Shown here: one piece after another, positions 14,387 through 53,070 of the stretch | How the letters are laid out: each line of letters starts with the position of its first letter | How positions within the stretch are numbered: position 1 is the first letter of the stretch | From: an uncultured bacterium | GTDB taxonomy: Bacteria > Patescibacteriota > Doudnabacteria > UBA920 | Assembly (NCBI GenBank): GCA_963749445.1 | Contig: CAVVMJ010000005.1 | Location: 98,915-162,914, forward strand | Reading direction: 5' to 3' | DNA: 64,000 bases | The notes under the pieces: model-generated | Databases searched by the model: none | The model's input: the letters and a program-made list of their open reading frames with translations, nothing else | Told to the model about the DNA's origin: nothing | Position numbers and translations under genes: made by a program

Positions 14387-14902
14387 TGTAGCGTGCCGAT
14401 TTATCGGCGTCTAAGTTATTTGTAGAATTGATCAAATTTAAGCAATAATTCTTGGGGATTATTTTGAATGTATTCCCGAATTTTAGTCAGGGCTTTTTCG
14501 TTTCTGACAACGTGTTCATAATAATTCGATTGCCAAAGATTTTGCCCGAAGGTATGGGAAACCTTGGCTTTAAATCTTCGGACGATCTCTCCCAGGTGCA
14601 ATTTGCAGTTGTGAAGGATGAAAATTATATGGATATGATTAGGCATAATCACAAAATAATCCAGTTCAATACCCGGGGTCTTAGATTGGAGGTCTTGCAA
14701 TTCGTTTTCCACTAGAATTTCATTATTTTGAAATAAGTTTTGCCTTAATTTGGCCACAGCGGTCACGAAGTAATATCCATCGGACGTATAATCATATTGT
14801 TTTAGACGAATGTTTTTTCTTCCGTCCATAGGATTGTCCTTCGACGCCGATAAATCGGCACGCTACATAGACCGGTGGGTGTAGCGTGCCCATTTATGGG
14901 CG
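14387..14902 (-). mobile_element. REP-RAYT unit inserted between purC and purB
   Basis: TGTAGCGTGCCGATTTATCGGCGTC at 14387-14411 and its exact reverse complement at 14843-14867 flank the Y1 transposase gene. A variant TGTAGCGTGCCCATTTATGGGCG lies at 14880-14902. Confidence 0.65.
14416..14829 (-). CDS. REP-associated tyrosine transposase (RAYT, IS200-like Y1 HUH transposase)
   Basis: HUH motif MPNHIHIIF. Catalytic-Tyr region NYYEHVVRNE. 137 aa. Confidence 0.75.
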   Translation of the reverse strand: MDGRKNIRLKQYDYTSDGYYFVTAVAKLRQNLFQNNEILVENELQDLQSKTPGIELDYFVIMPNHIHIIFILHNCKLHLGEIVRRFKAKVSHTFGQNLWQSNYYEHVVRNEKALTKIREYIQNNPQELLLKFDQFYK

Positions 14903-18195: not shown

Positions 18196-18244
18196 AAAAT
18201 TTTTCTACTAAATACTAAAGGGGCTAAATACGAAAAGTTCGACC

Positions 18245-19672
18245 TCATCTGCCGCTCGTAGATGCTACTGGCGACATCTTCTCCTTGCCAGGAGAAGAGG
18301 GAAACACGGATAAGGATTGCTGGCCGATGTCTGTTCTATAATGCATACCGTCAAAGTTTATAAGATTTACAGCGGCGTAAGCTTTGTTGAGGGCGGATTG
18401 TAAATCATCAGCAATTGCCGTGACTCCGAGGACTCGGCCGCCGTTTGTTACCAACCTCTCCCGGCCTTCGGCCGCCCTCCCCTCATCCCTCGACTCCGCT
18501 CGGGGTGACCTTGAGCTTGCCGAAAGGTCATGAGGGGAGGGGCGGGGAGAGGTTGCAGTACCGGCGTGGAAAATTACAATATCACCAAGCTTTTCCGCTT
18601 GTTCTATGCCGGTTATTGGCAAACCTTTTTCGTATTTGCCCGGGTAGCCGCCGCTGGCTAAGACAATACAGCAGGCAAAGCCCGGGTGCCATTCAATTTT
18701 AATTTTATCTAAAGTTCCTTCCACACTAGCCATCAGGACATCAAAAAGATCGGTTTTCATCAGTCTCATCAAACTTTGCATTTCCGGGTCACCGAAACGG
18801 CAGTTAAATTCAATAACCTTGGGGCCGTCATCCGTTAAAATTAATCCGGGATATAACAGTCCCATAAATGGCGAACTTTCTTTTTTTAGGGCTTTGAGGA
18901 TGGGGGTGACTATGGTATTGGCAACGGTATTTAAAAGATTTTGATTTACCCACGGCACTGGAGCAATAGTGCCCATGCCGCCGGTGTTCGGGCCCTTTCC
19001 GTCGTCAAAAATAGGCTTATGATCTTGCGCCGAAGGCAAGAGTTGGAAGTTTTTGCCGTCGCAAAAAGCGTGGATGGAAAATTCCGGTCCTTGTAAAAAT
19101 TCTTCTATGACTACGTCGTTGCCTGCGTCGCCGAATACTTTTTCCACCATCGCGGCCTTTAGCGCGGCCTTAGCTTCGGTCATTGTCTTGCATACTGTTA
19201 CGCCTTTTCCCAAAGCAAGGCCCGAAGCTTTAATAACTATGGGGGCTTTTATGGTTTCCAGATATTTAAGCGCGTGGTCGTAATTGCTAAAGACTTGGAA
19301 GCGCGCGGTCGGGATATTGGCTTTTTGCATCAAGTCTTTGGCAAAGGCTTTGGAAGCTTCTATGCGCGCCGCCGCCTGGGTCGGCCCCCAAATCAGCAGT
19401 TTGCGTTTTTTAAATTTATTGACAATCCCCAAAGCCAGCGGGTCATCTTGTCCCACTACCGTCAAATCAATTTTCTTTTTTTCCGCAAAATCAGCTAAGG
19501 CATCAATATCTGTGGCTTTGATGTCGATGTTCTCGGCGACTTGCGCCGTGCCGCCGTTGCCCGGGGCCACATAAATTTTCCCGACTTTGGGTGACTGTTT
19601 TAGTTTCCACGCCAAAGCGTGCTCCCGCCCGCCGCCGCCGATGATTAAGATTTTAGATAAGTTTTGCCTCAT
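18245..19672 (-). CDS. purD: phosphoribosylamine-glycine ligase carrying an in-frame 34-aa palindromic-element insertion
   Basis: KILIIGGGGREHALAWKL... 475 aa versus about 425 typical. The extra segment SPRPSPHDLSASSRSPRAESRDEGRAAEGRERL sits just before the conserved VTNGGRVLGV. Confidence 0.85.
   Translation of the reverse strand: MRQNLSKILIIGGGGREHALAWKLKQSPKVGKIYVAPGNGGTAQVAENIDIKATDIDALADFAEKKKIDLTVVGQDDPLALGIVNKFKKRKLLIWGPTQAAARIEASKAFAKDLMQKANIPTARFQVFSNYDHALKYLETIKAPIVIKASGLALGKGVTVCKTMTEAKAALKAAMVEKVFGDAGNDVVIEEFLQGPEFSIHAFCDGKNFQLLPSAQDHKPIFDDGKGPNTGGMGTIAPVPWVNQNLLNTVANTIVTPILKALKKESSPFMGLLYPGLILTDDGPKVIEFNCRFGDPEMQSLMRLMKTDLFDVLMASVEGTLDKIKIEWHPGFACCIVLASGGYPGKYEKGLPITGIEQAEKLGDIVIFHAGTATSPRPSPHDLSASSRSPRAESRDEGRAAEGRERLVTNGGRVLGVTAIADDLQSALNKAYAAVNLINFDGMHYRTDIGQQSLSVFPSSPGKEKMSPVASTSGR
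18452..18555. repeat. GC-rich palindromic insertion element inside purD (family B core CCCTCGACTCCGCTCGGGG)
   Basis: caacctctccc...gggagaggttg terminal inverted repeats, an internal tgacc...ggtca hairpin and the core ccctcgactccgctcgggg. About 104 bp. Confidence 0.7.
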
Positions 19673-20661: not shown

Positions 20662-20765
20662 AAATTGATTTTTCTACTAAATACTAAAATAACTAAAATA
20701 TTAAACCTGTATTTCGTTATTTTTCGTATTTAGTACATTTAGTATATTTTAGTATTTAGTAGAGG

Positions 20766-23341: not shown

Positions 23342-23891
23342 GAAACTGTATTTACTAACTACTAATCCTTACTAATATACGAATGTGAATTTCTTGGAAT
23401 TAGTATATTAGTAATTAATTAGTAGTTAGTAAAGTTAGTAATCTTTAAACGTTGACCGGTACGCCCTTAATGCGTCCGCGATTTTTAAATTTACAATGAG
23501 TTTTTGATGTTTATCGGTGATTGTTAAAGTAGATTTGGTGGTGGTTTTGCCGATTTTTGCAAAAATATTTTTTCCGGCGGAGCCGGATCCCGCTCCGCGG
23601 GACATCAGGTTTTCAAAAATAGCGATGTTCTGCGACGCCACGCTGACCAAAATTCGCCCTTGGCTTTCGCTAAATAAAGCCTGATAATTTTCCTGCCAGG
23701 AGCCGGGTACATCGGCCAAGCTGATTTCTGCGCCAAGGCCGCCGCCCATAAGTTTTTTAGTTAGCGCTACAATCAGGCCGCCGCCGTTAACGCTTATGGC
23801 CGAGGCGATTAGGTTTTGTCGGTTGGCGTTGAATAAAGTTTTATATAATAAATAGTTTTTGGCGGCGTTGACTTTTGGAACTCCAACCACC

Positions 23892-23945
23892 CCGTCCGCC
23901 TTCGGCGTCCACCCCTCCTTAAAAAGGAGGGGAGACTGCATTCTG
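23892..23945. repeat. palindromic insertion element (family A: ACCACCCCGTCC...CCCCTCCTTAAAAAGGAGGGG) inside purL C-terminal region
   Basis: Encodes MQSPLLFKEGWTPKADGVV in frame. Confidence 0.65.
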
Positions 23946-24900
23946 AAGTATTCGCTCCCGCCCATTTCATCATCAGTCGTTCCCAATATATAGAGCGAAT
24001 CGCCCGGCAGTTTGGCGTCCAGCGAAACGGTTTTGGCCGCGTCCGGCACCACGCCGATGGCGGAAATCAAAAGCGTGGGCGGAATGGAAATTTTTAGCGG
24101 CTTTCCATCATCGGAAAATCCTTTAAAGTCGTTATACATACTGTCTTTGCCGGAAATAAACGGCGTGCCGTACGCGGTGGCGACGTCGTAGCAGGCGCGC
24201 GCCGCTTGTTTTAACTGCCATAAACGGCCGGGGTCTTCCGGACTGCACCAGCAAAAATTATCCAATAAAGCCAAATAATCAATGTCAGCTCCGGCGGCCA
24301 CGGCCGCGCGAACGGCCGAATCAATGGCAGAAGCGGCCATATTGTAGGGGTTAAGCTCGCTGTAAGACGGATGCAAGCCGTAAGAAAGCACCACGCCTTT
24401 TGGGGAAGTTAAAAGCGGGCGGGTAACCGTGGCCTGGGCGCTAATTTTGCCGCGGCCTTGCAGCGGTTTTAATACAGAGCCGCCTTGGACTTCGTGGTCG
24501 TATTGGGTGTTGATAAAATTGGTGGAGGCTAGGTTGGGGCGGGATAATAATTTAAAAATTAAAGATTGAAGATTGAAGGATTTGGGGATTGCCGATGATC
24601 TTGCATTTTGTGATTTGGGTTTTTGTGTTTTTTGATTTTTAATCGGTCGGCCGTTGTGTAAAAATTCCAAATCCATATCCAGCACAGTCTGTTTTTTGAA
24701 TTTAATCAGGCATCTGCCGCTATCGGTAAATTTACCGATGACCGTAGTCTCTACCCCTCTTTTTTTCATCAGCTGTTGTAATTTTGCCAAACGCTTTGGC
24801 GGCACGGCCAAAACCATTCGCTCCTGGGATTCGGAAATCCAAATTTGCCAGGGCGCGAGGCCGGGATATTTTAAGCGGAACTTTATCCAGAAAGACTTCG

Positions 24901-24951
24901 CAGCCGCCCCTCGACTTCGCTCGGGACGACCCTGTCGGGTCGTTTGCAGCT
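24901..24951. repeat. family B element (CCCCTCGACTTCGCTCGGG + CGACCCTGTCGGGTCG hairpin) inside purL middle segment
   Basis: Encodes NDPTGSSRAKSRGGC in frame. Confidence 0.65.
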
Positions 24952-26280
24952 TGGGCCATTTCGCCGACCGCTGATGATAATCCTCCGGCGCCACAGTCAG
25001 TTATTGAAGAATATAAATCTAAGTTCCGCGCTTCTTTAGCCAGTGCGTCGCTGAATTTTTTTTGCGTTATCGGGTCGCCAATCTGCACGGCCGTGGCCGG
25101 GCTGTTTTTGTCCAAGTCCTTCAGAAGCAAAAGTCGCGCCGTGGATGCCGTCGGCCCCGACTCTGCCGCCCACCATCACAATCAAATCCCCGGCTTTGGT
25201 TTGTTTAATGTGGCCGGATTTGCCGTTAATCAGCCGGGGAATTAATCCCACGGTGCCGGCAAACACCAAAGGTTTGCCGCGGAAGCGCGGGTCAAAATAT
25301 ACAAATCCGGAATTGGTGGGAATGCCGCTTTGGTTGCCGCCTGAGTTAATGCCGGAAATTACGCCGTCCATTATGCGGCGGGAGGAGAGCATCTTGTTGT
25401 CCGATGTAGCGGCATGCCTTGGCATGCCGTCATCATTAGGCACGCCACGGCGTGCCTCTACAGGGTTAGATCGATATAATTCTGTTTTATCGTTCGGGTC
25501 GGCAAAGCAAAAACCGTAAGTATTAATAATCGGTTTTGCCCCCAAACCAAACCCTAAACAGTCGCGGTTGACTCCCACAATTCCGGTAATGGCGCCGCCG
25601 AACGGGTCAAGCGCCGAAGGCGTGTTATGGGTCTCCACTTTGTGGGTGATTAAATAATCGCGGTCAAAAATTATTCCGCCAGCGTTGTCGGTAAATACGG
25701 AGACGCAGAAGTCGTTACGTTTTTTTTGTTGCCGGATGGTTTCCGTGGCCCCCTTAATGTAGGTTTTATAGATGCCTTTTTCCAGCTCGTCCATCGGGTC
25801 GGCAAAAATGGTGTGTTTGCAGTGTTCCGTCCAGGTTTGCGCCAAAGTTTCCAGTTCCACGTCCGTGGGCTTCCGGTTTAGTTTGTTAAAATATTCGCGG
25901 ATGACTTTTAATTCTTCCAGCCCCAACGCCAGCGGCCCGCGCCTTTTCGCAGAAACTGCGAGTGCAGCCGAAGCAGTCCCGTTATTTTTTGATGGGATTG
26001 CTTCGTCGGATGCACTCCTCGCAATTTCCGGTTTTTTTTGGCGTTCCTCTATCCCCAATTTCCCCAGCTTTATCAGCTCCTCATCCGCAATATTCAAATC
26101 CACCCTGCTGACTTTGGCCGAGGCGGCAAGCTTGACTTTGGGCGCGACCATATCCATGCCGCCGTCTTTTTTAAAATCATCAAAACTTTTTACTGCCGCG
26201 CGTTGGATGAGCGGGTTGTAAAGGCTATTGGCGATTTTTTGGATATCCGCGGCTTGCCCGCCGAAGCCTTGGCGTAGGCG

Positions 26281-26337
26281 GGGGCTTCCCCTCCTTTTTA
26301 AGGAGGGGTGTCCTGCGGAGCGGGACGGGGTGGTTGG
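26281..26337. repeat. family A element in opposite orientation inside purL N-terminal region
   Basis: Encodes TPTTPSRSAGHPSLKRRGSP in frame. ccccTCCTTTTTAAGGAgggg palindrome. Confidence 0.65.
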
Positions 26338-26757
26338 AGTATAAAAAGAAATAAAAAAGACCTGAGACGAATAAACATCCTGCCCCGGCTTGAATTTTAT
26401 TTTCGCCCCGTCTTGCAAAGTTTCTTTGGCCGTGCGGCCAATGTTGTCCGTGACCCCGGGCAGAAAACCGATTTCCACGGCAAAATTAAAATTCCGCGGC
26501 GCCTTTAAAGCGGTGTCCGCGGATTCTGCAAGAGGATTGGCCAACAGCGTTTTGGCTTTTTGGATTTGTTTTTGGTTTAGGCGCGCGTCAATCGTATAGC
26601 AGTCCGCCAGATACACCGCCCCCAGTTTGTTTTTTAGCCCCAGCGCCTCAAACTGCTTTTTTTTGACTTTGGCCCGGGCGTCGGGGATGGTGGACTTTAC
26701 GTAAATGCGATGCATTGAGAGATTTGAGATTTATGATTTTAGATTTCAGATTGGAAT

Positions 26758-26861: not shown

Positions 26862-27821
26862 CATCCGCAGTGGGCGAAAAACAAAAAAATCTTCCAAAGA
26901 CCGGGAAGAAAATGTGAGCAGGGAATTGGTTGTAAGTTGTGGCGGCTAGTGTGGTAATAAGGTAATAGTGGTAAGTACTTATGCCTTATAACCTAATCTC
27001 AAACAGGCTGCCATGACTTATACCTTTTAACTCTCTATTTGCGGTGTCTTCCACCTGCAGTTTAGCAATAAAAAACCGGGTTGTCAAAAAAAATAGATCC
27101 CCGGAGAAGGATCTTTCTGACTGAAGGTTTTTTGGGGGTTTTGAGGTCCATTTTGAGGTCCATGTCGTCTGGTATTAGGCGGGAAAAGATCCTCTCCGGG
27201 GTTGCTCGGCGGCTGTGTCACCATTGGGGGTGTCAGCCGCCTTGATGTATGGCGTTCATCCGGTCGGTCGTCAGCCGGCCGGGAAAAATTTAAAGGCCTC
27301 CTTTTGTTTGGCTCGCTCCTGGCAGCGAGCGTCGCGCGGAATACTGGCCGCGCCCTAGTTAGCCGGATCCAGGCTGTCCGGCCCTATCATCACCTCGGTC
27401 TTCTTACCTCCCGGGTTTGCCGGCGATTGCCGGAATGCGGTCGGCCTCTATGGATAACGGCCGAGCCGCGTTGCATCTTCCTGGCCACGCCGGGCCGGAA
27501 GGAGTTAGACAAATACTTTACTGATTGCATTAATCAAAATTATAAAGATGAGAAATGATTTAGTCAATTTTTATCGAATTTTGTAACAAATCGTCTGGGT
27601 GTGTTATAGTTAAAAAATCAGGTTTGCCTGAAAATTTACGGGAGGACAATTAAAGGATGATAAGGCTTTTACTTGAGCGGGTTGCTGACCCATTGCTTAA
27701 CGTTGGCGTTTGGGTTATCGACAACCCGTTTTTGGCGTATTTGGCGAGATTATTTTCACGCCGTTCTTAGCGCCATCATCAGAAGCACCAAAGAACGCCG
27801 GGTTGCACAGTAATCCGGCGT

Positions 27822-27858
27822 TTCAAAATTAATAGGACAAATAGGACAAATAGGACAG
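27822..27858. repeat. 9-bp tandem array AATAGGACA x3 (+GATAAGGCA)
   Basis: aataggacaaataggacaaataggacagataaggca. Confidence 0.55.
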
Positions 27859-27998
27859 ATAAGGCAAAATAAAAACGCTTTTTAGGCGGGAATAAAATTT
27901 AGAAAAAGGGGACCGGAAGGGAGTCCCGCGAGAAGCTGAGTCTTAACTGTACTCGAAACTTCTGCAAAAGAGTCCCTTCCGATCGGCGCTGCCGAGCT

Positions 27999-28472: not shown

Positions 28473-29225
28473 CAGTTCTCCTTGTGATTGTGATCCCTTC
28501 CCTGGAAGGGCTGCGTTACCTATGACAGTCGTCATTACGGGGAAAGAGTCCCGTCGATCTGCTGTACCAGGATACATGATAGGCCCGAAATTTATCTACG
28601 GAAATTTGAGTAGCTAAACTTGGGGCTTATCACGGTATGATATTTGTAAACTTGTCTTAATAATAACTTTTTAAAAAAGTTTGTCAAATAAAAAGGCCGG
28701 GAAACGTGGCCTGCGCTTGGAGGTAACATGTCGTTGGAAAGACAGCGCAAACCCCGTTTCCCGGGTGGAGTAGGAGTTATCTGGCGATGAAGAATGTGCC
28801 AGTATAAAAACAATATGAATCCTCCGATTCAAGTTACAGGAGCCCCGCGGCCCCGGTGATGCATTACTGCGTTGGCTTCGGGAATCCGAAGCCGCGGGGT
28901 CCCAAGCCTTGTTGCCTACGGAGCGTTGTTGGTGGTGGCGACCGTTCGCTTCATCTGATTGTTGTTCCGAGCATCGTTGGGCGCCGTGACGGCGCCGGTG
29001 GTCTTGGTATTCATGTTGTTTATCCTCTTCAATCGAGATGCCTGGCAATATGCCAAGTCTAAGTAAATAATACATCAACAAAAAGGGATTTGTCAAATTA
29101 TGCTTATTATAAAGCGAGAAATAAAATGAAAAACATCAATCAAATATAGCCTAAGATAAGGGGGAATTTAAAATGGGCAAACATATTAAAAATTAGCTTA
29201 CAAACAAGGCAAAAGTTTATCGGTT

Positions 29226-29266
29226 AAATAGGACAGATAGGACAGATACGACTGATAAGACCGATA
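29226..29266. repeat. 9-bp tandem array ATAGGACAG x2 + ATACGACTG + ATAAGACCG
   Basis: Same unit family as the array at 27822-27858. Lies 20 nt upstream of the thpR-like start. Confidence 0.5.
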
Positions 29267-29284: not shown

Positions 29285-29926
29285 ATGAGGATTTTTGTGG
29301 GGATTCCGTTGTCGGAGGAGTTGAGGGGGCGGGTTTTGGAGTGGGAGGGACAACATCGATTCGACCTCTCTGCCCTTCGGCTGCACTCGGGGCATCTCCC
29401 CTCGCCAGGGGAGAAGGGGAACACCGTACGATGGGTTGAGCCCAAGAATTTGCATGTGACGCTGGTGCCGCCCCTCGACTTCGCTCGGGGCCTGCGGCCG
29501 TCTGATATCGAGGGGATCATCAAAAAGTTGGAAACAGTTAAGCATCAGCCTTTTGAAATAAGGTTTGATAAGATATCGTTCGGGCCGAATGTTAGGGAGC
29601 CGAGGATGGTTTGGGCAAGCGGAAACGCGGGAGAGGAAATTAAGAAATTGAAGAAATTGATTGAAATTGCGTTAAGCGGCATTGTTGATAATTCGCGCGG
29701 CCGCGCGTTTTATCAACACGTTACGCTGGCGAGGATAAAAAACCCTCATCCGCCGCTCGATGCATCGCGGCACCTTCTCCCAGGGGGAGAAGGCGGGAAC
29801 ATCCAAGCGGTTGACTGGCGGATGAAAGTAGAAAAGTTTGTGCTTTATGAGTCGCATTTGTTGCCGCAGGGGGCGGATTACGAGGTTTTGGCCGAGTTTT
29901 TGCTACAGCCTTTTACTAAATGCTAA
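29285..29926 (+). CDS. thpR: 2H-phosphoesterase family RNA 2',3'-cyclic phosphodiesterase / 2'-5' RNA ligase (LigT/ThpR) with three in-frame element insertions
   Basis: MRIFVGIPL... Two H-x-T-x motifs, LHVTL and QHVTL. 213 aa versus about 175-190 typical. Confidence 0.7.
   Translation: MRIFVGIPLSEELRGRVLEWEGQHRFDLSALRLHSGHLPSPGEKGNTVRWVEPKNLHVTLVPPLDFARGLRPSDIEGIIKKLETVKHQPFEIRFDKISFGPNVREPRMVWASGNAGEEIKKLKKLIEIALSGIVDNSRGRAFYQHVTLARIKNPHPPLDASRHLLPGGEGGNIQAVDWRMKVEKFVLYESHLLPQGADYEVLAEFLLQPFTKC
29393..29420. repeat. family C palindromic element (TCTCCCCTCGCCAGGGGAGAAGGGG) in thpR
   Basis: Encodes HLPSPGEKGN in frame. Confidence 0.55.
29471..29490. repeat. family B core CCCCTCGACTTCGCTCGGGG in thpR
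   Basis: Encodes PPLDFARG in frame. Confidence 0.6.
29774..29793. repeat. family C element (CTTCTCCCAGGGGGAGAAGG) in thpR
   Basis: Encodes LLPGGEGG in frame. Confidence 0.55.
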
Positions 29927-30033
29927 AATGACTAAAATACTAAACCAGGAATCACCAGTTTAGTATTTTTAGCTTCTTTAGTATTTAGTAGAGGAGGCTT
30001 GCGAAAGATAACCATCTAAACTAAAATTAAAGA

Positions 30034-37532: not shown

Positions 37533-37646
37533 TAAAATAATTTCAAATATCAAATATCAAATTTCAAATAAAAGTCAAGTGTTTAAAATTTTAAAATTTG
37601 GCATTAGGATTTCATTTGTAATTTGTAATTTGGTATTTGACATTTT

Positions 37647-39170
37647 ATGGGACTGCCGTCAAAAAAGCGCATAGTTGGGAATCAATGCGGGTCAATCATG
37701 ATCTTCAATATTTTGATTATTTTTATTTTTTCCACCGTGCTCATCGGCATTTTGAGCGTGGCCACTTCCCAGCTGCGACTTTTGCGCAGCAGCATCTACC
37801 GCGAGTCGGCATTTGACATCGCCGAAGCCGGGGTGAATTATTACCAGTGGCATTTGGCCCATTTTCAGACCGATTACGCCGACGGCAGCGGCCAGACCGG
37901 CTGCAACCCCTGCGGCCCCTATGTCCACAACTATACCGACACGGACAACGAAACCGTTATCGGCAAATTCAGCCTGATGATTACCCCGTCTTTGCTCGGC
38001 TCCACCATGGTGACCATCCAGTCCACGGGCTACACCCTGGCCGCCCCAGCTACCCGGCGCGTCCTGACCGTGCAGTACGGTATTCCCAGCCTGGCGCAGT
38101 ATTCGTTTTTAAGCAATTCCGACGCCTGGATCGGGGGCACGGAAGCGGTGCACGGCCAGTTCCGCAACAACGGCGGTTTGCGTTTTGACGGCACGGGCGA
38201 TTCCTGGATTTCTTCGGCTAAAAATAACATTCCGCCCGGGCCGGGCTACCAGTGCAGTCCGTTTTTCGGATGCTGCCCGGTGCTGACCAAGCCCGGCATT
38301 TGGGGATCCGCGCCGGGTTCTACCCAGTCATTTTGGCAGATGGGCCAGCCCAATTTCAACTTTACCGGCATTACCGCCGATTTGAACACTTTGGAAAATG
38401 ACGCCAAAGCCGGCGGGATTTATCTGGCCCCTTCCAATAGCCAGGGCGATTCGTTGGTGTTTAAAAACGACGGCACCCTGGATATTTATAAAGTCACTTC
38501 GCGCAAGGCCAATCCCACGGGGTATGACACCAATTGCAGCTACAGCGCCTCTTTATGCGCCAGTTCCTGCGGCAGCGCCTGCCTAAATTCCCTCCAGTGC
38601 GAGGCGCGCAACGACCAACTGGACTATAACGCCCGTACGTTCCAAAGCAATCAGGCTATCCCGGGCAACGGCGTCATTTACGTAGAAGATAATGCTTGGG
38701 TGGAGGGCACGGTCAAGGGCCGCGCGCTGGTGGTGGCGGCCAAGCTGGGCGCCGCTTTGTCTTCCATGCCCAACATCATGATTCCCAATAATATAGTCTA
38801 CAATGATTTAACCGCCAACAGCACGGACATTTTGGGCCTGCTGTCGCAAAAGGACATTGTTATTACCTACGCGGCGCCGCAGACTTTGACCATTGACGCG
38901 GCCCTGATCGCGCAAAACGGCGTGGCCAACTTTTTTGACTTCAGCGGCGGCTGCAGCAGCGTGGCCGCGGAAAAGACCACCCTGAACATTTTTGGCTCCA
39001 TGGCCAGTTACGGCATTTGGACCTGGACTTGGACCTGCGCCAACGGCAAATATTCCGGCTACCTCAACACCAACACCACTTACGACGGCCGGCTGCTGTA
39101 TTCGCCGCCGCCGGATTTTCCGGTTGACTCCGCCGCCGGTTACCAGCAATTAAATTGGAAGAGCAATTAA
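37647..39170 (+). CDS. PilX-like minor pilin / pilus-associated secreted protein (alternative start MIFNIL at 37698)
   Basis: Hydrophobic N-terminal helix IIFIFSTVLIGILSVATSQLRLL. 507 aa, Cys-rich. Confidence 0.45.
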   Translation: MGLPSKKRIVGNQCGSIMIFNILIIFIFSTVLIGILSVATSQLRLLRSSIYRESAFDIAEAGVNYYQWHLAHFQTDYADGSGQTGCNPCGPYVHNYTDTDNETVIGKFSLMITPSLLGSTMVTIQSTGYTLAAPATRRVLTVQYGIPSLAQYSFLSNSDAWIGGTEAVHGQFRNNGGLRFDGTGDSWISSAKNNIPPGPGYQCSPFFGCCPVLTKPGIWGSAPGSTQSFWQMGQPNFNFTGITADLNTLENDAKAGGIYLAPSNSQGDSLVFKNDGTLDIYKVTSRKANPTGYDTNCSYSASLCASSCGSACLNSLQCEARNDQLDYNARTFQSNQAIPGNGVIYVEDNAWVEGTVKGRALVVAAKLGAALSSMPNIMIPNNIVYNDLTANSTDILGLLSQKDIVITYAAPQTLTIDAALIAQNGVANFFDFSGGCSSVAAEKTTLNIFGSMASYGIWTWTWTCANGKYSGYLNTNTTYDGRLLYSPPPDFPVDSAAGYQQLNWKSN

Positions 39171-39371
39171 TTTAATTGACAAAATTGACATAATTGAGCA
39201 AAATTGAACATAATTTGATTTGGCAATTATGTCAATTATTCCCGCCTGCCTACGCCAATTATCAATCTCAGATAAATACTAACAATCAGCTGGCTAATCA
39301 ACATCATTAAAATATAACAAACGGCATCGGCGGGCAGGTAAATTATGGCAATTATGTCAATAATCCTTATG

Positions 39372-39782
39372 TTCAAAAAAACTTTTGCATTTTTGTCCAA
39401 GGCGTTGATAATATCGGCAATGTTTTTATTGCCGTTCGGCGTTTCGGCTATGATTTTGGTGCCCAAAGGAATGGTGCCGAATCCGCCGCCGCTGCAGCCG
39501 CATTCGCCTTTGGTCAAACCCAATATTTCCCAAAACGTCAATACGCCGCCCCAGCCAGCGCCGTACGGCCAGACTGCGACTTCGGCGTCCGCCTCCTTGC
39601 CGCCGCCTGCCACAACCAGCCAGTCAGCCGTTGCGCCGCCGCCCGATAATACGGTGGCCGCGGATGAGCAAAGCGCCGATACCACGGCTTTATGGGCCAA
39701 ACCCTGGTTGTGGGCGCTGGTTTTGGTTGTCGGAAGTTCGTTGGGGTATTGGCTGGTTATGAAGGATAGGGATAAGAATTAA
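39372..39782 (+). CDS. Pro-rich membrane-anchored hypothetical protein (track ORF start 39345 lies inside a repeat motif)
   Basis: MFKKTFAFLSKALIISAMFLLPFGVSA... C-terminal TM helix WLWALVLVVGSSLGYWLV. Confidence 0.4.
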   Translation, partial: FKKTFAFLSKALIISAMFLLPFGVSAMILVPKGMVPNPPPLQPHSPLVKPNISQNVNTPPQPAPYGQTATSASASLPPPATTSQSAVAPPPDNTVAADEQSADTTALWAKPWLWALVLVVGSSLGYWLVMKDRDKN

Positions 39783-39875
39783 ATCATTGACATAATTGCC
39801 ATAATTTAAATAATTGCCATAAATATTGGGCCTATTATTTATGTTCAATTATGTCAATTATGTCAATAACATCAT

Positions 39876-41154
39876 GACTCAATCCGCCGCGGGGGATAGC
39901 GAACTGTCATCAATCTACAAACTGCCGCGCGCCACCTGCCCTTACTGCGGCCACAATCCCAGCCCACATTTTTTTACCTGGTACGTGGAAAGCCTGGACA
40001 TTTTATTGGCGCCTTTGCGCCGGTTAATTTTTTACAACCCCGCATCGCGTTTGGTAAGGCGGTGGTTAAAATCGCGGCAGTTTGGCTGGCGTTTTGCCTC
40101 GCTGCTGTTAAAACTGCGGGTGTTCCAAAAGCAGTCTGACATATCGGTTTGCAAAGTCCGCCGCGCCCAGGTCTTGTGGGAAGAAGCGCAAAAACGCGGC
40201 ATCAAATTTTTCGGCCTAAAATTGTTCGGCAAAAATTTGGATATGTACCTGGCCGAGAAAAGCGGCAAAAGGTTGTTTATTGACGGCTTGCCGCGGCCGC
40301 AAAATTCTGACGGCGGCATGCTGGACGTAATGGATGACAAGCTGCTGTTAAAAAATAAATTGGCAGCTGCCGGTTTGCCCGTGCCAGCCGGCGGGAGCGC
40401 GACCGGAATGCCATCAGCTGTTAAAATTTTCCGCTTGATTGATAAACCAGTTATCGTTAAGCCGCGTACCGGCAGCCGTGGGAGACACACCACCACTTTT
40501 GTCCGGACGGAAGAAGATTTGCGGCAGGCCGTCAAAGTCGCCAAGCAGCTTTGCCATTGGGTAATGGTGGAGGAGCAGCTGTTTGGCCCGGTTTACCGTG
40601 CCACGATTATTGATGGCCCCTCGACTTCGCCCCTTCGGCCTCGAGCTCAGGGCCGAGAGGTCGGGACAAGCAAGCTTGCCGGAGTTTTACGCGGCGACCC
40701 GCCGCAGGTAACTGGGGATGGCAAACATACTATCGCGCAGCTGATAAATATCAAAAACTCGCAGCCGCACCCGAGGGTTAAGGACATAGTTATGGACTCA
40801 TCAGCAGAGTTATTTTTGCAGCGCCAGCAATTATTCGCCGACACGATTTTGCCAGCCGGCCAGATTGTACCGATATCCGAAAAAATCGGCCTCAATTCCG
40901 GAGGGTCGTCCAGCGAAGATTTTGACATTTGCCATCCGGACAATGCGGAGCTGTTTTTGCGCGCCGCCGAGGTTTTGGGCGACCCGCTGGTGGGTTTTGA
41001 TTTTATTATTCCCGACATAGCAAAATCGTGGAAAAGCCAAAAATGCGGATTCATTGAAGCCAACTCCCTGCCCTTCATCAATCTCCATCACGATCCACTG
41101 AAAGGAGCCCCCCGCAACGCCGCCGCCCTGGTTTGGGAGATGATGGGAATGTGA
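39876..41154 (+). CDS. ATP-grasp protein resembling the N-terminal domain of cyanophycin synthetase, with in-frame element insertion
   Basis: VIVKPRTGSRGRHTT, ATIIDG...LAGVLRGDPPQVTGDGKHTIAQLI, ILPAGQIVPISEKIGLNSGGSS and VGFDFIIPDI. Track start 39826 is encoded by repeat motifs. Confidence 0.6.
40617..40666. repeat. family B element (CCCCTCGACTTCGCCCCTTCGGCCTCGAGCTCAGGGCCGAGAGGTCGGG) inside ATP-grasp gene
   Basis: Encodes PSTSPLRPRAQGREVGTS between the conserved IIDG and KLAGVLR. Confidence 0.65.
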
Positions 41155-43764: not shown

Positions 43765-43775
43765 CATTTACCTCT

Positions 43776-44259
43776 CCTACGAACTTACGAACATTTCGAA
43801 CTACGAACTGACCCGTTATGCCAATAAAACCAAAGATAAGGAAACAAGATTTATTATATCCTGACTTATCGTATGAAATTATTGGCGCGTTGCTTGCGGT
43901 ATACAAAGCTTTGGGGCCGGGACTCCCGGAAAAAGTTTACCAAAGAGCGGTCGCGGAGGAATTAAGGAGAAGAGGGATAAAGTTCCAAGAGCAGGTTCCG
44001 GTAAAAATAATTTACGAGGGCATTCCTATAGGAATTTATTATGCCGATTTCGTCATTGAAGATAAAATTGTTTTGGAATTAAAAACTTACAGATTTTTTA
44101 GCAGAAAAAATATTGACCAAACAGTCGGTTACTTAAAAAGTTTAAAATTACAGCTCGGTATGCTAGCCAATTTTACCAGAAATGGTTTGGAATATAAAAG
44201 AATAATTAATCTTACGTAAGAAGCCGGTTCGTAGTTCGTAACTTTCGTAAGTTCGTAGG
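43776..44259 (+). mobile_element. GxxExxY gene cassette bounded by about 36-bp imperfect inverted repeats
   Basis: Left: CCTACGAACTTACGAACATTTCGAACTACGAACTGACC. Right: CCGGTTCGTAGTTCGTAACTTTCGTAAGTTCGTAGGA, which is the reverse complement with a few mismatches. Confidence 0.5.
43818..44219 (+). CDS. GxxExxY family protein
   Basis: GPGLPEKVYQRAV fits G-x-x-E-x-x-Y. 133 aa. Confidence 0.7.
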   Translation: MPIKPKIRKQDLLYPDLSYEIIGALLAVYKALGPGLPEKVYQRAVAEELRRRGIKFQEQVPVKIIYEGIPIGIYYADFVIEDKIVLELKTYRFFSRKNIDQTVGYLKSLKLQLGMLANFTRNGLEYKRIINLT

Positions 44260-44268
44260 ATCATCAAT

Positions 44269-46480
44269 ATGAAACCAAAACCGCCCGGCAGACGCCATAC
44301 GCCTCACTTACATCATCAAACTAAAATTAACCAAACCATTATGGATAAGGTCAAAATCAAAAGGGTAAAAAGGGATAAAAAGAAAGCCACAACAAAAGAA
44401 AAGATTTTGGCCGGTTTGGGCGTGGGCGGAACCCTGATGGGCGGCATTGCGGGAATGCAGGCTAAACCCAGCGCGCAGACGAAACTTGTCAGCATCACCG
44501 GCACCGAGCAGTCCAGCGGCACTTCCAAAATTAAATCCGCAATAAAAAAGCTTTTTGGCGCGACCATTGGAGCGCAGACGGCCAAGGCGGAAGAAAATAC
44601 CACCACAACCCGCACAGTTACAGATCCGGATACTGGTCAAATTACCACTTATTACGACACCACTATTAATGGTATGCCTGTAACGGTTGACCAAAACGGC
44701 ACTACCTGGATAAATCAGGGCAACGGAGCCGAGCAGGTTGACCCGCAGGATTACGGCATAGATCCCAATGCCATACAAACGCAGGCTACCACGTCGTCAG
44801 ATACTTCCGGAACCTCCGGCACAAGCGGCACATCTGGCACATCAGGGACTTCTGGTGACGATGGTTCAAGCGGCACTTCCGGTACATTTCCGGGACTTCT
44901 GGCACATCAGGTGACGGTGGCGGTACAGCGGTGACATGGCGACAGTGGTGACAGCACCACTAATACCGGCCCCACCCTAACCGGCGCGCCAACCTTAAAC
45001 TCCAGCGGCACGGGCATTGATGTGTCCGGTTTGGCATCTAGTGGCGGCAGCAGCGGCATCAGCATTGACGACAGCCAGGTTAACTACAATGTTCCCGGCA
45101 CCTACACCGTAACCATCAACGCTTACGACAGTTCCGGCAACCTGACTTCCCAGACATACCAGGTCACAGTTCCGGCTACATCTGGAACCGCGGTACATCT
45201 GGGACTTCTGGTGAACTCTGGCACTTCCGGTAGTAGCGACGCCACTAATACTGGCCCCACCCTAACCGGCGCACCAACCCTAAACTCTAGTGGCACGGGT
45301 ATTGATGTCTCCGGTTTGGCATCTAGTGGCGGCGGCAGCGGCATCAGCATTGACGACAGCCAGGTTAACTACAATGTTCCCGGCACCTATACCGTAACCA
45401 TCAACGCTTATGACAGTTCCGGCAACCTGACTTCCCAGTCATACCAAGTCACAGTTCCGGCTACCTCAGGTACATCAGGTACCATCTGGAACCAGTCGGC
45501 ACTTCTGGTACATCCGGTACTTCTGGTGCCACAACCGGCCCCACCTTAACCGGTTTGCCAACCCTAAATTCCACTGGCACGGGCATTAACGTGTCCGGCT
45601 TGACGTCCTCGGGTGGCAGCGACAATATCAGCATTGACGACAGCCAGGTTAACTACAATGCTCCCGGCACCTATACCGTAACCATCAACGCTTACGACAG
45701 TTCCGGCAACCTGACTTCCCAGACTTATCAGATAACAATTCCGGCTACCTCAGGTACCTCTGGCACATCAGGGACATCCGGAACCAGTGGCACAAGTGGC
45801 ACTTCCGGCACTCTGGAACCAGCGGAACCTCTGTCGATTTAGGAGCCCCTGTTTCCGGCTCTATACCATCCCGACTCCAACAATTCTTACAGCTGGACAG
45901 CCTCGACTGCCACCATTGGCGGCCAGCAATACACTAACCTAAACCTTTCCGCCCTGTCGGACGGCCGGATTATTGCCTACATTAACCGGCTGGCACGGAC
46001 GTGACTTCAGGTTTACACCTTGCGGCATGACCGGGACTTTATATTCCGCCTATAAGTGCTAGCTCCGGAGCCTGGTACCTCCGGCACTATCAGGGACTTC
46101 GGGTACATCGGGCACATCATGTACATTCGGTACTACTGGAACTTCAGGTCATCTGTCATCTCAGGCACTCGTCGCCGTCCGCCACAACCGGCAACGTACC
46201 ACCCGTGGTTACATTGAACAACGGCGTGTATACGGCTTCGGTGACTATCAACGGGCAAACCTATACGGCTACAGGATCCACTTTGGGCGATTTGAACAGT
46301 AATATGCAAAAGTACAATAATCTTACCGGCAATAACCAGCAAGTTTTTGCGGCTTTGGCTCAGGCTTCCGACGCCTACGCGTTGAAGCAATATAACGCGA
46401 CGCAAGCGGGTAAAACCCCGGGCAACGGCGCGCCAATTGATATATCCACCGCTTCCGTGTACGGCTCCGATGAGTTATGA
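44269..46480 (+). pseudogene. large surface protein gene with three tandem ~95-aa Ig-like repeats separated by (SGT)n linkers; reading frame broken at the linker microsatellites
   Basis: Track ORFs 44269..44934, 45022..45549, 45555..45842 and 46205..46480 each encode the same unit TGPTLTGAPTLNSSGTGIDVSGLASSGGSSGISIDDSQVNYNVPGTYTVTINAYDSSGNLTSQTYQVTVPATSGTSGT, in different frames. Confidence 0.5.
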
Positions 46481-50033: not shown

Positions 50034-50084
50034 GCATTGACATAATTGATCAAAACGGCATTTATGCCGTCCCGAACGGAGTGA

Positions 50085-50128
50085 GGGATCCCTCGACTCC
50101 CCCTCGACAAGCTCGGGGTCGCTCGGGA
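50085..50128. repeat. intergenic family B element (GGGATCCCTCGACTCCCCCTCGACAAGCTCGGGGTCGCTCGGGATG)
   Basis: Same CCCTCGAC / CTCGGGG cores as the intragenic copies. Confidence 0.6.
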
Positions 50129-50216
50129 TGACAGCTATAATAATAAATTATAGTTTGTCAATTATGTCAATGATTTTATGCTATAATAATTAAACTTAAA
50201 AAGTAAACCATACGTC

Positions 50217-51080: not shown

Positions 51081-51175
51081 CCCTTTGATTCTTTTCGGGT
51101 TTGAAATAACCAAAAAACCACTGTGATACGGTGGTTTTTTGATTTAAACTAGATCTGTTGGGTCTGTTAACTAAA

Positions 51176-51304
51176 TCGGTTGGTGGATAAATCAAAATCG
51201 CGGGACTGGTGCATATATCTGTTGGTGGATAAATCAAAATCGCGGGACTGGTGCATATATCTGTTGGTGGATAAATCAAAATCGCCTGTAGCTACAGGCG
51301 ATTT
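51176..51304. repeat. 42-bp direct repeats x2.6 (iteron-like), ending in a hairpin
   Basis: Unit CTGTTGGTGGATAAATCAAAATCGCGGGACTGGTGCATATAT. Third copy is truncated into aaaatcgcctgtagctacaggcgatttt. Confidence 0.7.
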
Positions 51305-51469
51305 TGTGTATTTTTTCGTTACTAATTTCGTTTTTGAAATTAGTTTTATTTTTATCGCAATCGGTAAATTATGAATGCCTTATAAACACTAGCGTTCATC
51401 GATAATTTTAACGTTTAGCGAACGAATTTACCAACCAAAATGGTTAACAGTCCCGATCTGTTGCGTTTG

Positions 51470-51575
51470 CGCGTACGTACGCGTATATTAAACAAATGAT
51501 ATTTTAGCGAAAAGCTGTTTCCGGATAAATTGTAAATTTGTTGCATTTATTCGTACGTACGAATAAATGCAACAA
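51470..51575. promoter_or_regulatory. palindromes CGCGTACGTACGCG (51470-51483) and the 38-bp perfect palindrome TTGTTGCATTTATTCGTAC|GTACGAATAAATGCAACAA (51538-51575)
   Basis: Read directly. A related 20-bp palindrome ATACGCGTACGTACGCGTAT lies at 52155-52174 on the other side of gene 51593..52126. Confidence 0.5.
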
Positions 51576-51592
51576 AGCCCGCGGTAAATAAT

Positions 51593-52126
51593 TCAGCCTG
51601 ACCCGGTGAGTTTAAAGTGTTTCAACAAATCCTTGTCGTCGTCCAACTCCTCCAGCCTGCCTATGCGGATATAATCAATCAGTCCTGTACTTTTCAGGTA
51701 CGTTATCGCCTCGCGGTTCAGCGGGTAAGGGGTCAGGTAGACGCTGGCCTGGAGTTTGAAGAATTCACCGGATTTTAGCAGCCTTCTGAGTTTGTCGCGC
51801 TTGTCGTTGGCATCGCGGGGGATATCAAACATAATCATCCGCCATTTGCCGTCCCACGTTTGTTTTTTGGGCAGCCATGCTTTGGCCATAAGCAGTTCCA
51901 GCTGGCCTTTGCGGGTCAAGCGCAAAAATTTTTGTCCCGCCGCGGTTTTTGTGATGTTTACATAGCCTTTGCGGCGGAGCCTGTAGGCGGTTTGGCGGTA
52001 TTGTTCGTAAGTGCCCGGCTGGCGTTTTTGCTCCCATTGCCGTTTGGATGAAAAAATGGACGTGAAGCCGTCTACAAAGGCAAATAACAGAAAACTTTGG
52101 GGATAGTGTCTTAAACTTCGCGGCAT
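51593..52126 (-). CDS. hypothetical protein, wHTH-like N-terminal half plus Cas2/PaaX-C-like C-terminal half
   Basis: RQTAYRLRRKGYVNITKTAAGQKFLRLTRKGQLEL. C-terminal WRMIMFDIPRDANDKRDKLRRLLKSGEFFKLQASVYLTPYP fits the strand-DIP-basic helix-strand pattern of Cas2/PaaX C-domains. Confidence 0.4.
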   Translation of the reverse strand: MPRSLRHYPQSFLLFAFVDGFTSIFSSKRQWEQKRQPGTYEQYRQTAYRLRRKGYVNITKTAAGQKFLRLTRKGQLELLMAKAWLPKKQTWDGKWRMIMFDIPRDANDKRDKLRRLLKSGEFFKLQASVYLTPYPLNREAITYLKSTGLIDYIRIGRLEELDDDKDLLKHFKLTGSG

Positions 52127-52371
52127 ATTTTTTGATTTATCCTATGTGTTTAATATACGCGTACGTACGCGTATTGTCAACAGATTATGTTTGGTGGAAA
52201 GCGCGGTTTTTGATTTTTGATGTGGCAACAGTTGTTTAGTTTATGCGTACGTGCGTGTAAACGCAACAAGGGAAAGCGATTGATAAAACATTCCTGATTT
52301 TGACGGCCGTCAAAATCAGGAATGTAATAAAAATCGAGAATGAAATCGGGAAATCTTGCCTGTCGGCGGAA

Positions 52372-52941
52372 TCAGGAAAAACCGGCGGGCGGGATTTTTT
52401 TTAGCGGGAGCCGATGCCGTTTTAAAACGATTAAGCACAGCAGGAAAAGGCCGGCGAAAAAGAAGACGGCGGCAATTGAGTGGCCTGTTAAGTTTTGATC
52501 GGAAGGGGGCGGCAAAATGACAGTCAGCGGGATTTTGACTCCGGCGGCCACGGCCAGATTTTTTTTATCCAGCGGCCGCGCCAAAACATCCAGGGACGTA
52601 ACAAAAGGCGCGCCGGCCCGATTTTGGATTTCGGCGGACAGGCGTTTGGCGTCCACGCGGATGCTGACAGTTTTCCGGCCGCCCGGCCCCAAAGCAAAAT
52701 CATTCGGTTCAACGGTGATGGCGCTGGGGAAGTCTGGGGCGTAAATCTGGAAAGTTTGCGCGTCGGCTGTCGGGTTGGCCACTGTCAGCTGCCCCGTTGT
52801 CTGAGCCGGCGCCTGTAAATCCAGTTTGCTGGGGGAAACCCCGATGCCGGAAGCAAGGGCGGTTGGAGCCATAAATGGCATTAGATATATTACGATGGCG
52901 ATTAGTGTCTTTTTAATCATGTTTTTTGGCCATAATGCCAA
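52372..52941 (-). CDS. cell-surface protein with signal peptide and C-terminal TM anchor
   Basis: MIKKTLIAIVIYLMPFMAPTALA... C-terminal AAVFFFAGLFLLCLIVLKRHR. Confidence 0.4.
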   Translation of the reverse strand: MALWPKNMIKKTLIAIVIYLMPFMAPTALASGIGVSPSKLDLQAPAQTTGQLTVANPTADAQTFQIYAPDFPSAITVEPNDFALGPGGRKTVSIRVDAKRLSAEIQNRAGAPFVTSLDVLARPLDKKNLAVAAGVKIPLTVILPPPSDQNLTGHSIAAVFFFAGLFLLCLIVLKRHRLPLKKIPPAGFS

Positions 52942-53070
52942 ATATCAAATTCCAAATTTCAAATGAATGCCAAATGGCCAATTGCCAAGATCAAATTTGC
53001 CGCAGTTTTTGAAATTTGGCATTTAAGAATTGGGATTTTATTTGAAATTTGATATTTGTAATTTGAAATT

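Follow-up and report, generated by a model that had tools for sequence, protein, structure and literature searches.

A nested palindromic repeat in frame in purD of an uncultured Doudnabacteria genome, and related hairpin inserts in Patescibacteria

Introduction

In-frame entry of palindromic repeats into housekeeping genes has been known chiefly from Rickettsia and from a small number of bacteria rich in repetitive extragenic palindromic (REP) sequences. The case described here comes from an uncultured member of the Doudnabacteria, in the Patescibacteria or candidate phyla radiation (CPR). The DNA analysed, referred to as the window, is a stretch of 64,000 nt from contig CAVVMJ010000005.1 of GenBank assembly GCA_963749445.1. 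A GC-rich element of 104 nt at 18452-18555, with perfect 11-nt terminal inverted repeats (caacctctccc/gggagaggttg), lies in frame in purD, the gene for phosphoribosylamine-glycine ligase. The element consists of two repeats, a three-stem repeat of about 60 nt (family C) and, in its apical loop, a repeat of about 45 nt (family B). The segment is probably selfish, non-autonomous hairpin DNA of the REP or MITE (miniature inverted-repeat transposable element) type, tolerated as a predicted disordered surface loop.

The Rickettsia palindromic elements (RPEs; Ogata et al. 2000, 2002), as outlined in a later account (PMC10969869), are palindromes that lie in frame in housekeeping genes and have been read as selfish DNA. 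Di Nocera et al. 2013 (PMC3733652) described intragenic REPs with GTAG or CGTC tags, which form hairpins of 20-40 nt and occur singly or as inverted dimers. Intragenic REPs are present in Opitutus terrae and in R. conorii (RPE-4 and RPE-6) and encode 20-30 amino acids. REPs sometimes sit inside target palindromes, CGTC REPs have no known transposase, and CPR lay outside that survey (PMC3733652). No description of in-frame palindromes in CPR was found in the literature searched, the coverage of which was incomplete, so that this is no proof of novelty.

Results and discussion

Host gene and insertion site

The element lies in an open reading frame (ORF) of 475 amino acids on the minus strand (18245..19672). 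The ORF was identified as purD from Pfam GARS_N, GARS_A and GARS_C, from PDB homologues (E=1e-124) and from an AlphaFold2 (AF2) model built from 65 homologues (mean predicted local distance difference test, pLDDT, 89; predicted template modelling score, pTM, 0.86). The top PurD homologues come from Patescibacteria/CPR assemblies, one of them named Doudnabacteria, and are mostly 422-431 amino acids long. The preliminary description, made from the sequence of the window, had put the excess length of PurD at about 50 residues, in agreement with 475 residues against 422-428 for most homologues. In the Pfam search the GARS_C match is stretched to 120 residues against a profile of 92 positions. The nearest homologues (P0002-P0004; 72% identity, 426 amino acids) have no insert but a turn of 8 residues instead. 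In the PurD encoded at comparison locus L001, this turn reads FHAGT-KIDRGQLI-TNGGRV, where the window protein has 34 residues. A native beta-turn of 6-8 residues has been replaced by a 34-residue segment, the insert peptide itself being SPRPSPHDLSASSRSPRAESRDEGRAAEGRERL (33-34 amino acids).

The insertion site is predicted to be compatible with the fold of the enzyme. In an alignment to the Geobacillus enzyme (PDB 2yrw), chain residues 385 and 392 bracket the insert, and PDB homologues have a 6-residue turn there. In the AF2 model, strands 372-375 and 406-409 lie on either side of the insert, and pLDDT is <50 at residues 383-403, which is predicted disorder within the insert. The sole other low-confidence stretch is the C-terminal tail, residues 458-475 (pLDDT <50). 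This tail of about 18 residues is unique to the window protein and holds another hairpin, TCTTCTCCTTGCCAGGAGAAGA, with a 9-bp stem (18277..18298). The 104-nt insert contributes about 27 net extra residues and the tail about 18, and together they explain nearly all of the roughly 50 extra residues.

The segment could be viewed as an ancient native linker of PurD that was inherited vertically and lost repeatedly, given that five PurD sequences have it at exactly this position. The preliminary description had named segments of equivalent length in orthologues as the mark of a native linker. Such segments were found at the same position in P0006, P0019, P0037 and P0055, yet they consist of the same palindromic repeat, family C, and not of a native linker. 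These carriers are not monophyletic; they are scattered on the PurD tree (neighbour-joining only), each beside insert-free sisters. Moreover, the segment is a perfect palindrome that occurs in other genes too, its conservation far exceeds that of the gene around it, and the PDB homologues make do with six residues. A native linker is considered highly improbable.

An assembly artefact, an intein or an intron is scarcely credible as the source of the insert. Two frameshifts in purL of the same assembly, described below, put sequence quality in some doubt, but NCBI, ENA and JGI assemblies that are independent of one another all have the outer repeat at this site. At 34 amino acids or 104 nt, the insert is much too small for any intein or self-splicing intron, and both were rejected on size. 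The reading frame is kept throughout, and Rfam gave no match for the whole window at the gathering threshold or for the 14-30 kb region even at E<=1.

Anatomy of the composite element

The sequence of the element, its coordinates, its arms, its in-frame location and its peptide are as given in the preliminary description, which had treated the 104 nt as one RPE-like unit. The RPE-like nature stands, whereas the single unit does not: sequence, folding and comparison with relatives resolve 18452..18555 into a family C repeat, which owns the terminal inverted repeats, and a family B repeat nested within it. The outer stem of C is formed by a left arm, CAACCTCTCCC (18452..18462), which recurs in C copies of other genes and genomes, and a right arm, GGGAGAGGTTG (18545..18555). 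Read in the purD frame, the right arm gives G(R/E)ERL and takes the place of the end of the native turn, 'dGxL'. A side hairpin, GGCCTTCGGCC, follows the left arm at 18463..18473; it is supported by folding and by a compensatory variant (GCCC/GGGC) in L003. Comparison with relatives defines the inner stem of C, with left arm GCCCTCCCCTCAT (18474..18486) and right arm ATGAGGGGAGGGGC (18530..18543).

The nested repeat occupies 18487..18530 on the plus strand and consists of the core CCCTCGACTCCGCTCGGGG (18487-18505) and the hairpin TGACCTTGAGCTTGCCGAAAGGTCA; family B as a whole is defined as a repeat of about 45 nt with the core CCCTCGACTYCGCTCGGG and the hairpin YGACCYTGAGCTTGYCGAARGGTCR. It splits the apical loop of C as CTCAT|GAGG, with TCAT on both of its sides, and this loop is uninterrupted in L003, L005, L137, L146 and L148. 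The intact loop reads CTCATGAGG in L003/L004 and L005 and CTCATAAGG in L150. The version in L003, GCAACCTCTCCC-GCCCTTCGGGC-ACCCTCCCCTCATGAGGGGAGGGAC-GGGGAGAGGTTGC, comprises an outer stem and two hairpins, a small one at the side and an inner one, and the window element has the same three parts plus 45 nt placed exactly in the apical loop of the inner hairpin. Other relatives show further stages: L005 has a different nested insert, located in the loop of the side hairpin, and L151 has a decayed copy at the purD site from which the left outer arm is gone. Four of the five nested cases seen lie at or in a hairpin loop. In L003 and L150 the side hairpin is found 5' of the inner one, whereas in the window and L005 it is found 3', indicating that the outer repeat is present in both orientations at one purD site.

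The composite is strongly structured. A stretch of 116 nt around the element folds as DNA at -34.8 kcal/mol (z -4.9) and as purD-sense RNA at -67.1 kcal/mol (z -5.4); in neither case was any of 200 dinucleotide shuffles as good.

The likeness to RPEs is one of kind, drawn from published descriptions of RPEs. The repeat is in frame and absent from close orthologues, the same families occur in several unrelated genes, and the insert lies in a loop that is compatible with the fold according to the 2yrw alignment and the AF2 prediction. These observations bear out the RPE-like reading of the preliminary description. As far as those descriptions go, RPEs likewise comprise several palindrome families that sit in frame in unrelated housekeeping genes, with translated extra segments judged compatible with the fold, in a host-dependent bacterium with a reduced genome. 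By the same descriptions, the present case is unlike RPEs in its host phylum, the Patescibacteria, and in its modules of about 20-60 nt compared to roughly 100-150 bp. It also differs in that the units are GC-rich relative to their host genes and often nested, and in that one co-resident family is accompanied by a REP-associated tyrosine transposase (RAYT). The purD element is best filed under protein-coding palindromic repeats, as with RPEs and intragenic REPs. What is notable is that the element is nested, that the incidence of such inserts across a CPR clade is very high, and that one core is shared across phyla.

The outer repeat, family C

Family C, which can be called the "TSPRPSPHEGR" family after its peptide, was found at the same purD codon position, as a shorter palindrome, in L003/L004 (GCA_005802045.1 and an ENA assembly), L005 (JGI 3300036766) and L150 (JGI 3300036885). 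Within the window and the first loci compared, the outer repeat was found in purD only, which suggested a purD-specific structure. This was ruled out when a metagenome scan with the 20-nt inner palindrome recovered copies in other genes. Complete in-frame C copies are present in a class I tRNA synthetase (LeuRS-like; L137 and L146, same site), in GatB (L127) and in a transaldolase/FSA (L148). Matches of the 20-nt palindrome in gut metagenomes proved to be an unrelated simple hairpin and were set aside.

The aligned C copies have a mean column identity of 89% (n=8). The purD genes that host four of them are 65-75% identical as DNA, or 66-83% within 90 nt on each side of the insert. Two carriers do not resemble each other more closely in these flanks than a carrier resembles the non-carrier L001, and there is therefore no evidence of transfer by homologous recombination. 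Whichever way it is oriented, the C consensus can be read without a stop in two frames, and a TGA closes the third.

Family C also invites comparison with bacterial MITEs such as Correia, Nezha, ERIC and BOX (PMC10969869, PMC3184786). Like these, the purD element is short and non-autonomous, with terminal inverted repeats and strong structure, and occasional in-frame fusions are known for MITEs as well. Unlike MITEs, it has no target-site duplication (8 copies), and its size is at the bottom of the MITE range. Family C differs from the tagged REPs in lacking any tag and in its three-stem architecture.

The inner repeat, family B

The B core CCCTCGACTCCGCTCGGGG has three matches in the window at <=3 mismatches (18487, 24908 and 29472), compared to 0.02 expected. 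A fuzzy search for the core at 4 errors did no better than in shuffled sequence, and only close or hand-verified copies were therefore counted. On this basis the window holds three close copies and three split or degenerate ones. The preliminary description had listed four further occurrences of the core; two of them are the close copies at 24908 and 29472, whereas those at 40617 and 50085 are real but split or nested versions.

In purL, the copy at 24908..24942 (plus strand) is read as NDPTGSSRAKSR and is not found in three orthologues. The thpR gene has a core at 29472..29490 (plus strand; PLDFARG) that adds 6 amino acids relative to the L005 orthologue, and a weaker B-like core with the hairpin TCTCCCCTCGCCAGGGGAGA at 29372..29414 (plus strand), in an N-terminal part about 17 amino acids longer than in PDB homologues. 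The segments 24903-24925 and 29467-29489 are identical at 23/23 positions (family D20). In a cyanophycin-synthetase-like ATP-grasp gene, a core split by a nested hairpin (40617..40667, plus strand) gives an 18-amino-acid insert at a beta-turn relative to PDB 7lgn. Finally, an intergenic doublet with inverted arms lies at 50070..50134; the loop of its right arm holds a second, nested core, and the doublet has the widespread flanks GAT...ATGACA. The single-arm cores are all on the plus, G-rich strand (5/5), which is only suggestive at n=5.

Other genomes have the B core as well. When one genome per species was scanned, at least 120 loci were returned across many phyla; by our arithmetic, chance alone would give a few dozen occurrences of an 18-mer in the 596 Gb. 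The matches listed include NC10, Acidobacteria, Verrucomicrobia, Planctomycetes, Myxococcota, Sphingomonads, Bacteroidota, Patescibacteria and others. The flanks of the core are non-random: among 138 matches listed, 38 continue with ATGAC and 14 with ACGAA, and for 18 of them an inverted partner lies no more than 120 nt away. The longer sequence of core plus hairpin, CCCTCGACTTCGCTCGGGACGACCCTGAGCTTGTCGAAGGGTCG, is also present in unrelated phyla (L058, L096 and L082). In-frame B cores were seen at two loci of lower GC, in a LeuRS-like ORF of L033 (Patescibacteria) and in a Xer-like recombinase ORF of L112, both genes being identified by eye.

Measured against the CGTC REPs, the agreement is only partial. 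The purL copy has the tag CGTC and the intergenic copy TGTC, the consensus stem of widespread B copies is ATCCC...GGGAT, and inverted dimers occur at 50070-50134 and in other phyla. However, the purD copy has no tag. CGTC REPs have a terminal tag (CGTC, TGTC or CCTC), a stem of 8-9 bp starting with A-T pairs, a loop of 4-5 nt and a CCA tail, and form head-to-head dimers (PMC3733652), whereas the coding B copies have a stem of 5-6 bp with a G-T pair, a 6-nt loop and no CCA tail.

A RAYT and its GTAG REPs

The pur operon of the window also encodes a RAYT (Y1 HUH) of 137 amino acids (14416..14829, minus strand), located between purC and purB and 3.4 kb from the purD element. This gene and its REPs had not been seen in the preliminary description. 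The protein scores 35.4 bits against Pfam Y1_Tnp, above the cut-off of 23, and 73.2 bits (E=2e-20) against NCBIfam REP_Tyr_transpos, just under the cut-off of 80. HUH (PNHIHII) and YYEH motifs are visible in its sequence. A GTAG-tagged REP, GTAGCGTGCCGATTTATCGGC, lies at 14388..14408 (plus strand), an inverted one on the other side of the gene at 14846..14866 (minus strand), and a third copy at 14881..14901 (plus strand). These REPs fit the GTAG class (PMC3733652), and the RAYT with its flanking inverted REPs (14387-14901) is an ordinary REPtron.

The RAYT has orthologues, likewise of 137 amino acids and flanked by GTAGCGTGCCGATTTATCGGC REPs, at the same position in L005 and L151 and beside purD in L150, and L001 has a truncated remnant. 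A phmmer search of the window RAYT against the ORFs of L001-L149 found RAYTs in the window, L005 and L001 only. REPs of the GTAGCGTGCCGATTTATCGGC family are themselves found within pur genes. In L005, a doublet lies in frame in PurD and encodes DRSVPAESPFGIYRPMNGRATT; L003 has one in PurL; and L151 has 12 copies in 18.8 kb, among them REPs within purL, within purE and at the purB end. It follows that the REP family associated with this RAYT does end up in frame in housekeeping genes here, and its link to the RAYT in this lineage is well supported.

The RAYT and its REPs resemble the REPIN-RAYT systems (Bertels and Rainey 2011, PMC3116915) in the small Y1/HUH gene, the inverted GTAG REPs, the conserved position and the dispersed REP doublets. 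Classical REPINs are overwhelmingly extragenic, in contrast to the cognate REPs here, which repeatedly lie in frame within pur genes. The purD element lacks a GTAG tag and is not similar to the REPs on either side of the RAYT. It falls outside that REP family and is for this reason not classed among the REPINs of this RAYT.

Origin and spread of the purD element

The observed anatomy, nesting, absence from close orthologues, spread of both families and location at a turn are consistent with the following scenario. A C repeat of about 60 nt, with the stems CAACCTCTCCC/GGGAGAGGTTG and CCCTCCCCTCAT/ATGAGGGGAGGG and the side hairpin GGCCTTCGGCC, would have replaced the native turn of 7-8 residues. 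A B repeat of about 45 nt (CCCTCGACTYCGCTCGGG plus YGACCYTGAGCTTGYCGAARGGTCR), from another family, would then have landed in the apical loop of C. Only insertions of 3n bases with a stop-free frame, at turns or loops, would survive selection, which would explain why every coding copy is in frame. The survivor would be read as a loop rich in Pro, Ser, Arg and Gly that is predicted to be disordered.

Mobilisation of single-stranded hairpins by HUH/Y1 enzymes is established for the REP/RAYT and IS200/IS605 systems. We infer that the B and C repeats are mobile as well, and it seems most likely that they moved in trans, as single-stranded hairpins, by means of a HUH/Y1 (RAYT-like) transposase. Their presence at hairpin loops and at sites that encode turns may reflect accessibility and survivorship. 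Most likely, the elements are selfish DNA with a neutral or slightly deleterious effect.

Several observations count against tolerated selfish DNA moved in this way. First, neither B nor C has the GTAG tag of the REPs that flank the local RAYT or is similar to these REPs, and no RAYT was found within 8 kb of the B-core loci listed (120), so there is no support for a RAYT dedicated to B. The TCAT/TCAT at the inner junction is ambiguous, as it may belong to the hairpin itself, and the outer ends of the 8 C copies have neither a target-site duplication nor a conserved target motif. Second, the C copies (about 89-95% identical) are more conserved than the purD DNA around them (65-83%), which, judged from these alignments, would be unexpected for old, neutral, vertically inherited junk. 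Third, all eight coding copies of C use the same one of its two open frames, (T)SP..PSPHEGR, and C occupies an identical purD codon position, in both orientations, in four or more further genomes, of lineages that are not sisters on the neighbour-joining tree. Same-site recurrence together with a single frame may hint at targeting, recombination or constraint beyond tolerated junk. The conservation of C, its position, its frame and the mimicry of the native turn by its right arm would leave room for targeting, inversion in place, recombination or structural constraint.

A rather unlikely reading of these observations is that the outer repeat spreads horizontally under structural constraint and inserts by targeting or homing. 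Other hairpin repeats, too, tend to enter at or near hairpin loops. Taken with the 18-nt B core, which many phyla share at the nucleotide level, such behaviour would suggest a machinery or host factor, near-universal but so far unrecognised, by which small hairpins are copied into single-stranded loops. It would come to light in CPR genomes because hardly any intergenic space is left in them.

Alternatively, the hairpin or its peptide may be functional and kept by selection, as an mRNA structure, as DNA bound by a host factor or as an interaction loop, in which case its spread would be recruitment. The conservation of C above its host genes and the single reading frame of all coding copies would fit such a function. 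An RNA fold of -67 kcal/mol could slow ribosomes or protect the transcript, and a compensatory change preserves the side hairpin (GGCC/GGCC versus GCCC/GGGC). However, palindrome symmetry can persist without selection through repair within the hairpin, the copy in L151 is decaying and has lost its left arm, and the closest relatives do well without the insert. The same repeats are also found at unrelated turns of unrelated enzymes, many families occupy the same PurD hot spots, and the peptide is predicted to be disordered. Function as the cause of spread thus appears unlikely.

It is also conceivable, but quite improbable, that the palindromes were made or grown in place, by template switching or hairpin-primed repair, and were spread by homologous recombination of conserved flanks. 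Such an origin would account for a right arm (G-E-R-L) close to the native 'dGxL' end with a left arm that is its exact complement, and for the missing target-site duplication. It would also fit the use of one site by several lineages in both orientations, since the centre of a palindrome can flip, and the tendency of elements to nest at or near hairpin loops. What it does not explain is that the same approximately 60 nt, outer arms included, lie between unrelated flanks in LeuRS-like, GatB and transaldolase genes, or that the B core crosses phyla with conserved flanks of its own. The flanks of purD carriers, moreover, are no more similar to one another than to those of the non-carrier L001.

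Other in-frame inserts in the window and in relatives

A count of perfect hairpins with 8 bp or more gives 47 in the window and 6-16 in shuffled sequences, and at least 10 further in-frame hairpin inserts are present in purL, thpR and the cyanophycin-synthetase-like gene. The estimate of at least eight in-frame insertions in four genes in the preliminary description therefore holds and is exceeded. In alignments of PurD, PurL, ThpR and the ATP-grasp protein to orthologues or PDB homologues, of the kind that the preliminary description had proposed, the inserts are absent from the sequences compared or shorter there, and those in PurD and the ATP-grasp protein lie at turns.

PurL of the window shows 5-6 lineage-specific inserts when the pur operon is aligned with L001, L003 and L005. 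Repeat searches and the ortholog alignment identified a family A composite at 23872..23933 (LFKEGWTPKADG insert) and an inverted copy at 26287..26348. The latter is part of a 29-amino-acid insert that also holds a D-family hairpin at 26252..26282. The A core CCCCTCCTTAAAAAGGAGGGG, which had been reported as recurrent, is indeed found at 23912 and 26288, inside this 62-nt inverted pair, and is seen in both orientations. Two adjacent 8-bp hairpins at 25410..25457 make up another purL insert (NPVEARRGVPNDDGMPRHA), and the hairpin CCTTCTCCCAGGGGGAGAAGG at 29773..29793 makes up the insert LPGGEGGN in thpR. In L003 and L005, PurL, PurB, PurQ and PurD have inserts of their own, and L001 is nearly free of them.

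In relatives, PurL is encoded by a single intact gene of 991-1079 amino acids. The window purL (23435-26715) is split into three frames by two 1-nt insertions, an extra G in CTTGGAC near 25112 and an A4 where A3 is expected (24869-24872). The two insertions are about 240 nt apart and flank the B insert; they could be due to sequencing error or mark a recent pseudogene.

The pattern extends to other genomes. In the best-scoring 120 PurD homologues, 52 proteins (43%) carry 94 internal inserts of at least 6 amino acids, with no more than four in any one protein. They are concentrated at a small number of alignment positions that correspond to loops or turns of the model, and Pro, Ser and Arg are enriched 2.5-2.8 fold in them. 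At one hot spot the peptide varies by genome (PIYGLQPINRHA, VGEGFKPSPT, SPPLRGGAGGGW, SAFAKASADD and others), which argues for repeated independent events. Outside the pur genes, L127 GatB, L148 transaldolase and the L033 LeuRS-like ORF each have at least two different hairpin-type inserts (for example ASIPSSALRAPSPARGEG and PSFAKASEGK), and the invasion by multiple families is therefore not confined to pur genes.

In-frame palindrome invasion is thus pervasive in one branch of the Patescibacteria. Such repeats are a plausible source of many 'CPR-specific insertions' and low-complexity loops in CPR proteins, and they affect annotation, homology search, structure prediction and phylogenetic alignment of CPR genes. 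A lineage that has a cognate RAYT for one of the families is a natural system for studying the movement of hairpin elements and the gain of disordered loops.

Further features of the window and relatives

AT-rich spacers of the window contain a short word repeated 3-6 times with a period of 7-9 nt, for example AATAGGACA, TTTCAAATA, TTTAGTA or GTTCGTA. They are located at 18196-18244, 20662-20765, 27816-27870, 29212-29266, 29927-30033, 37534-37647, 39147-39872, 43775-44260 and 52932-53081. The word varies by spacer, and inverted pairs around genes are frequent. Promoters, UP-elements or binding sites are among the possibilities.

A GC-rich, hairpin-dense island of about 200 nt (27290-27520) lies in a 1.3-kb stretch with two unconvincing ORFs of at least 50 amino acids (54 and 118 amino acids), the longer of which (27202-27558) overlaps the island. 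Its fold z-scores are only -1.7 and -2.2, and it has no Rfam match; it could be an unknown RNA or a pile-up of hairpin repeats. No tRNAs were found in the window.

A gene for a PaaX-like regulator (51593-52126, in the region 51100-52340) is ringed by long perfect palindromes at 51537-51576 and 52288-52325. It is also surrounded by TACGCGTACGTACGCGTA boxes in a 42-nt inverted pair (51456-51497 / 52144-52185), and three 42-nt tandem repeats are located nearby at 51160-51285. Coding repeats on a larger scale are found at 44800-46150, in tandem units of about 285 nt rich in GTSGTSG, and at 56295-64000, where an ORF of >1760 amino acids consists of repeats of about 300 nt (NGTINATSSNFTN...) with copies up to 100% identical. 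The latter probably encodes a surface protein, and the D-family hairpin of purL recurs within it at 56963-56993.

In relatives, small insertions separate the pur genes (L005 6978-7457; L003 2667-3684 and 14962-15345, from operon comparison). The genes between pur genes encode a 23S rRNA intervening-sequence protein, a GIY-YIG protein, a HicAB pair and a DUF559 endonuclease, which suggests that small mobile genes often land in this operon.

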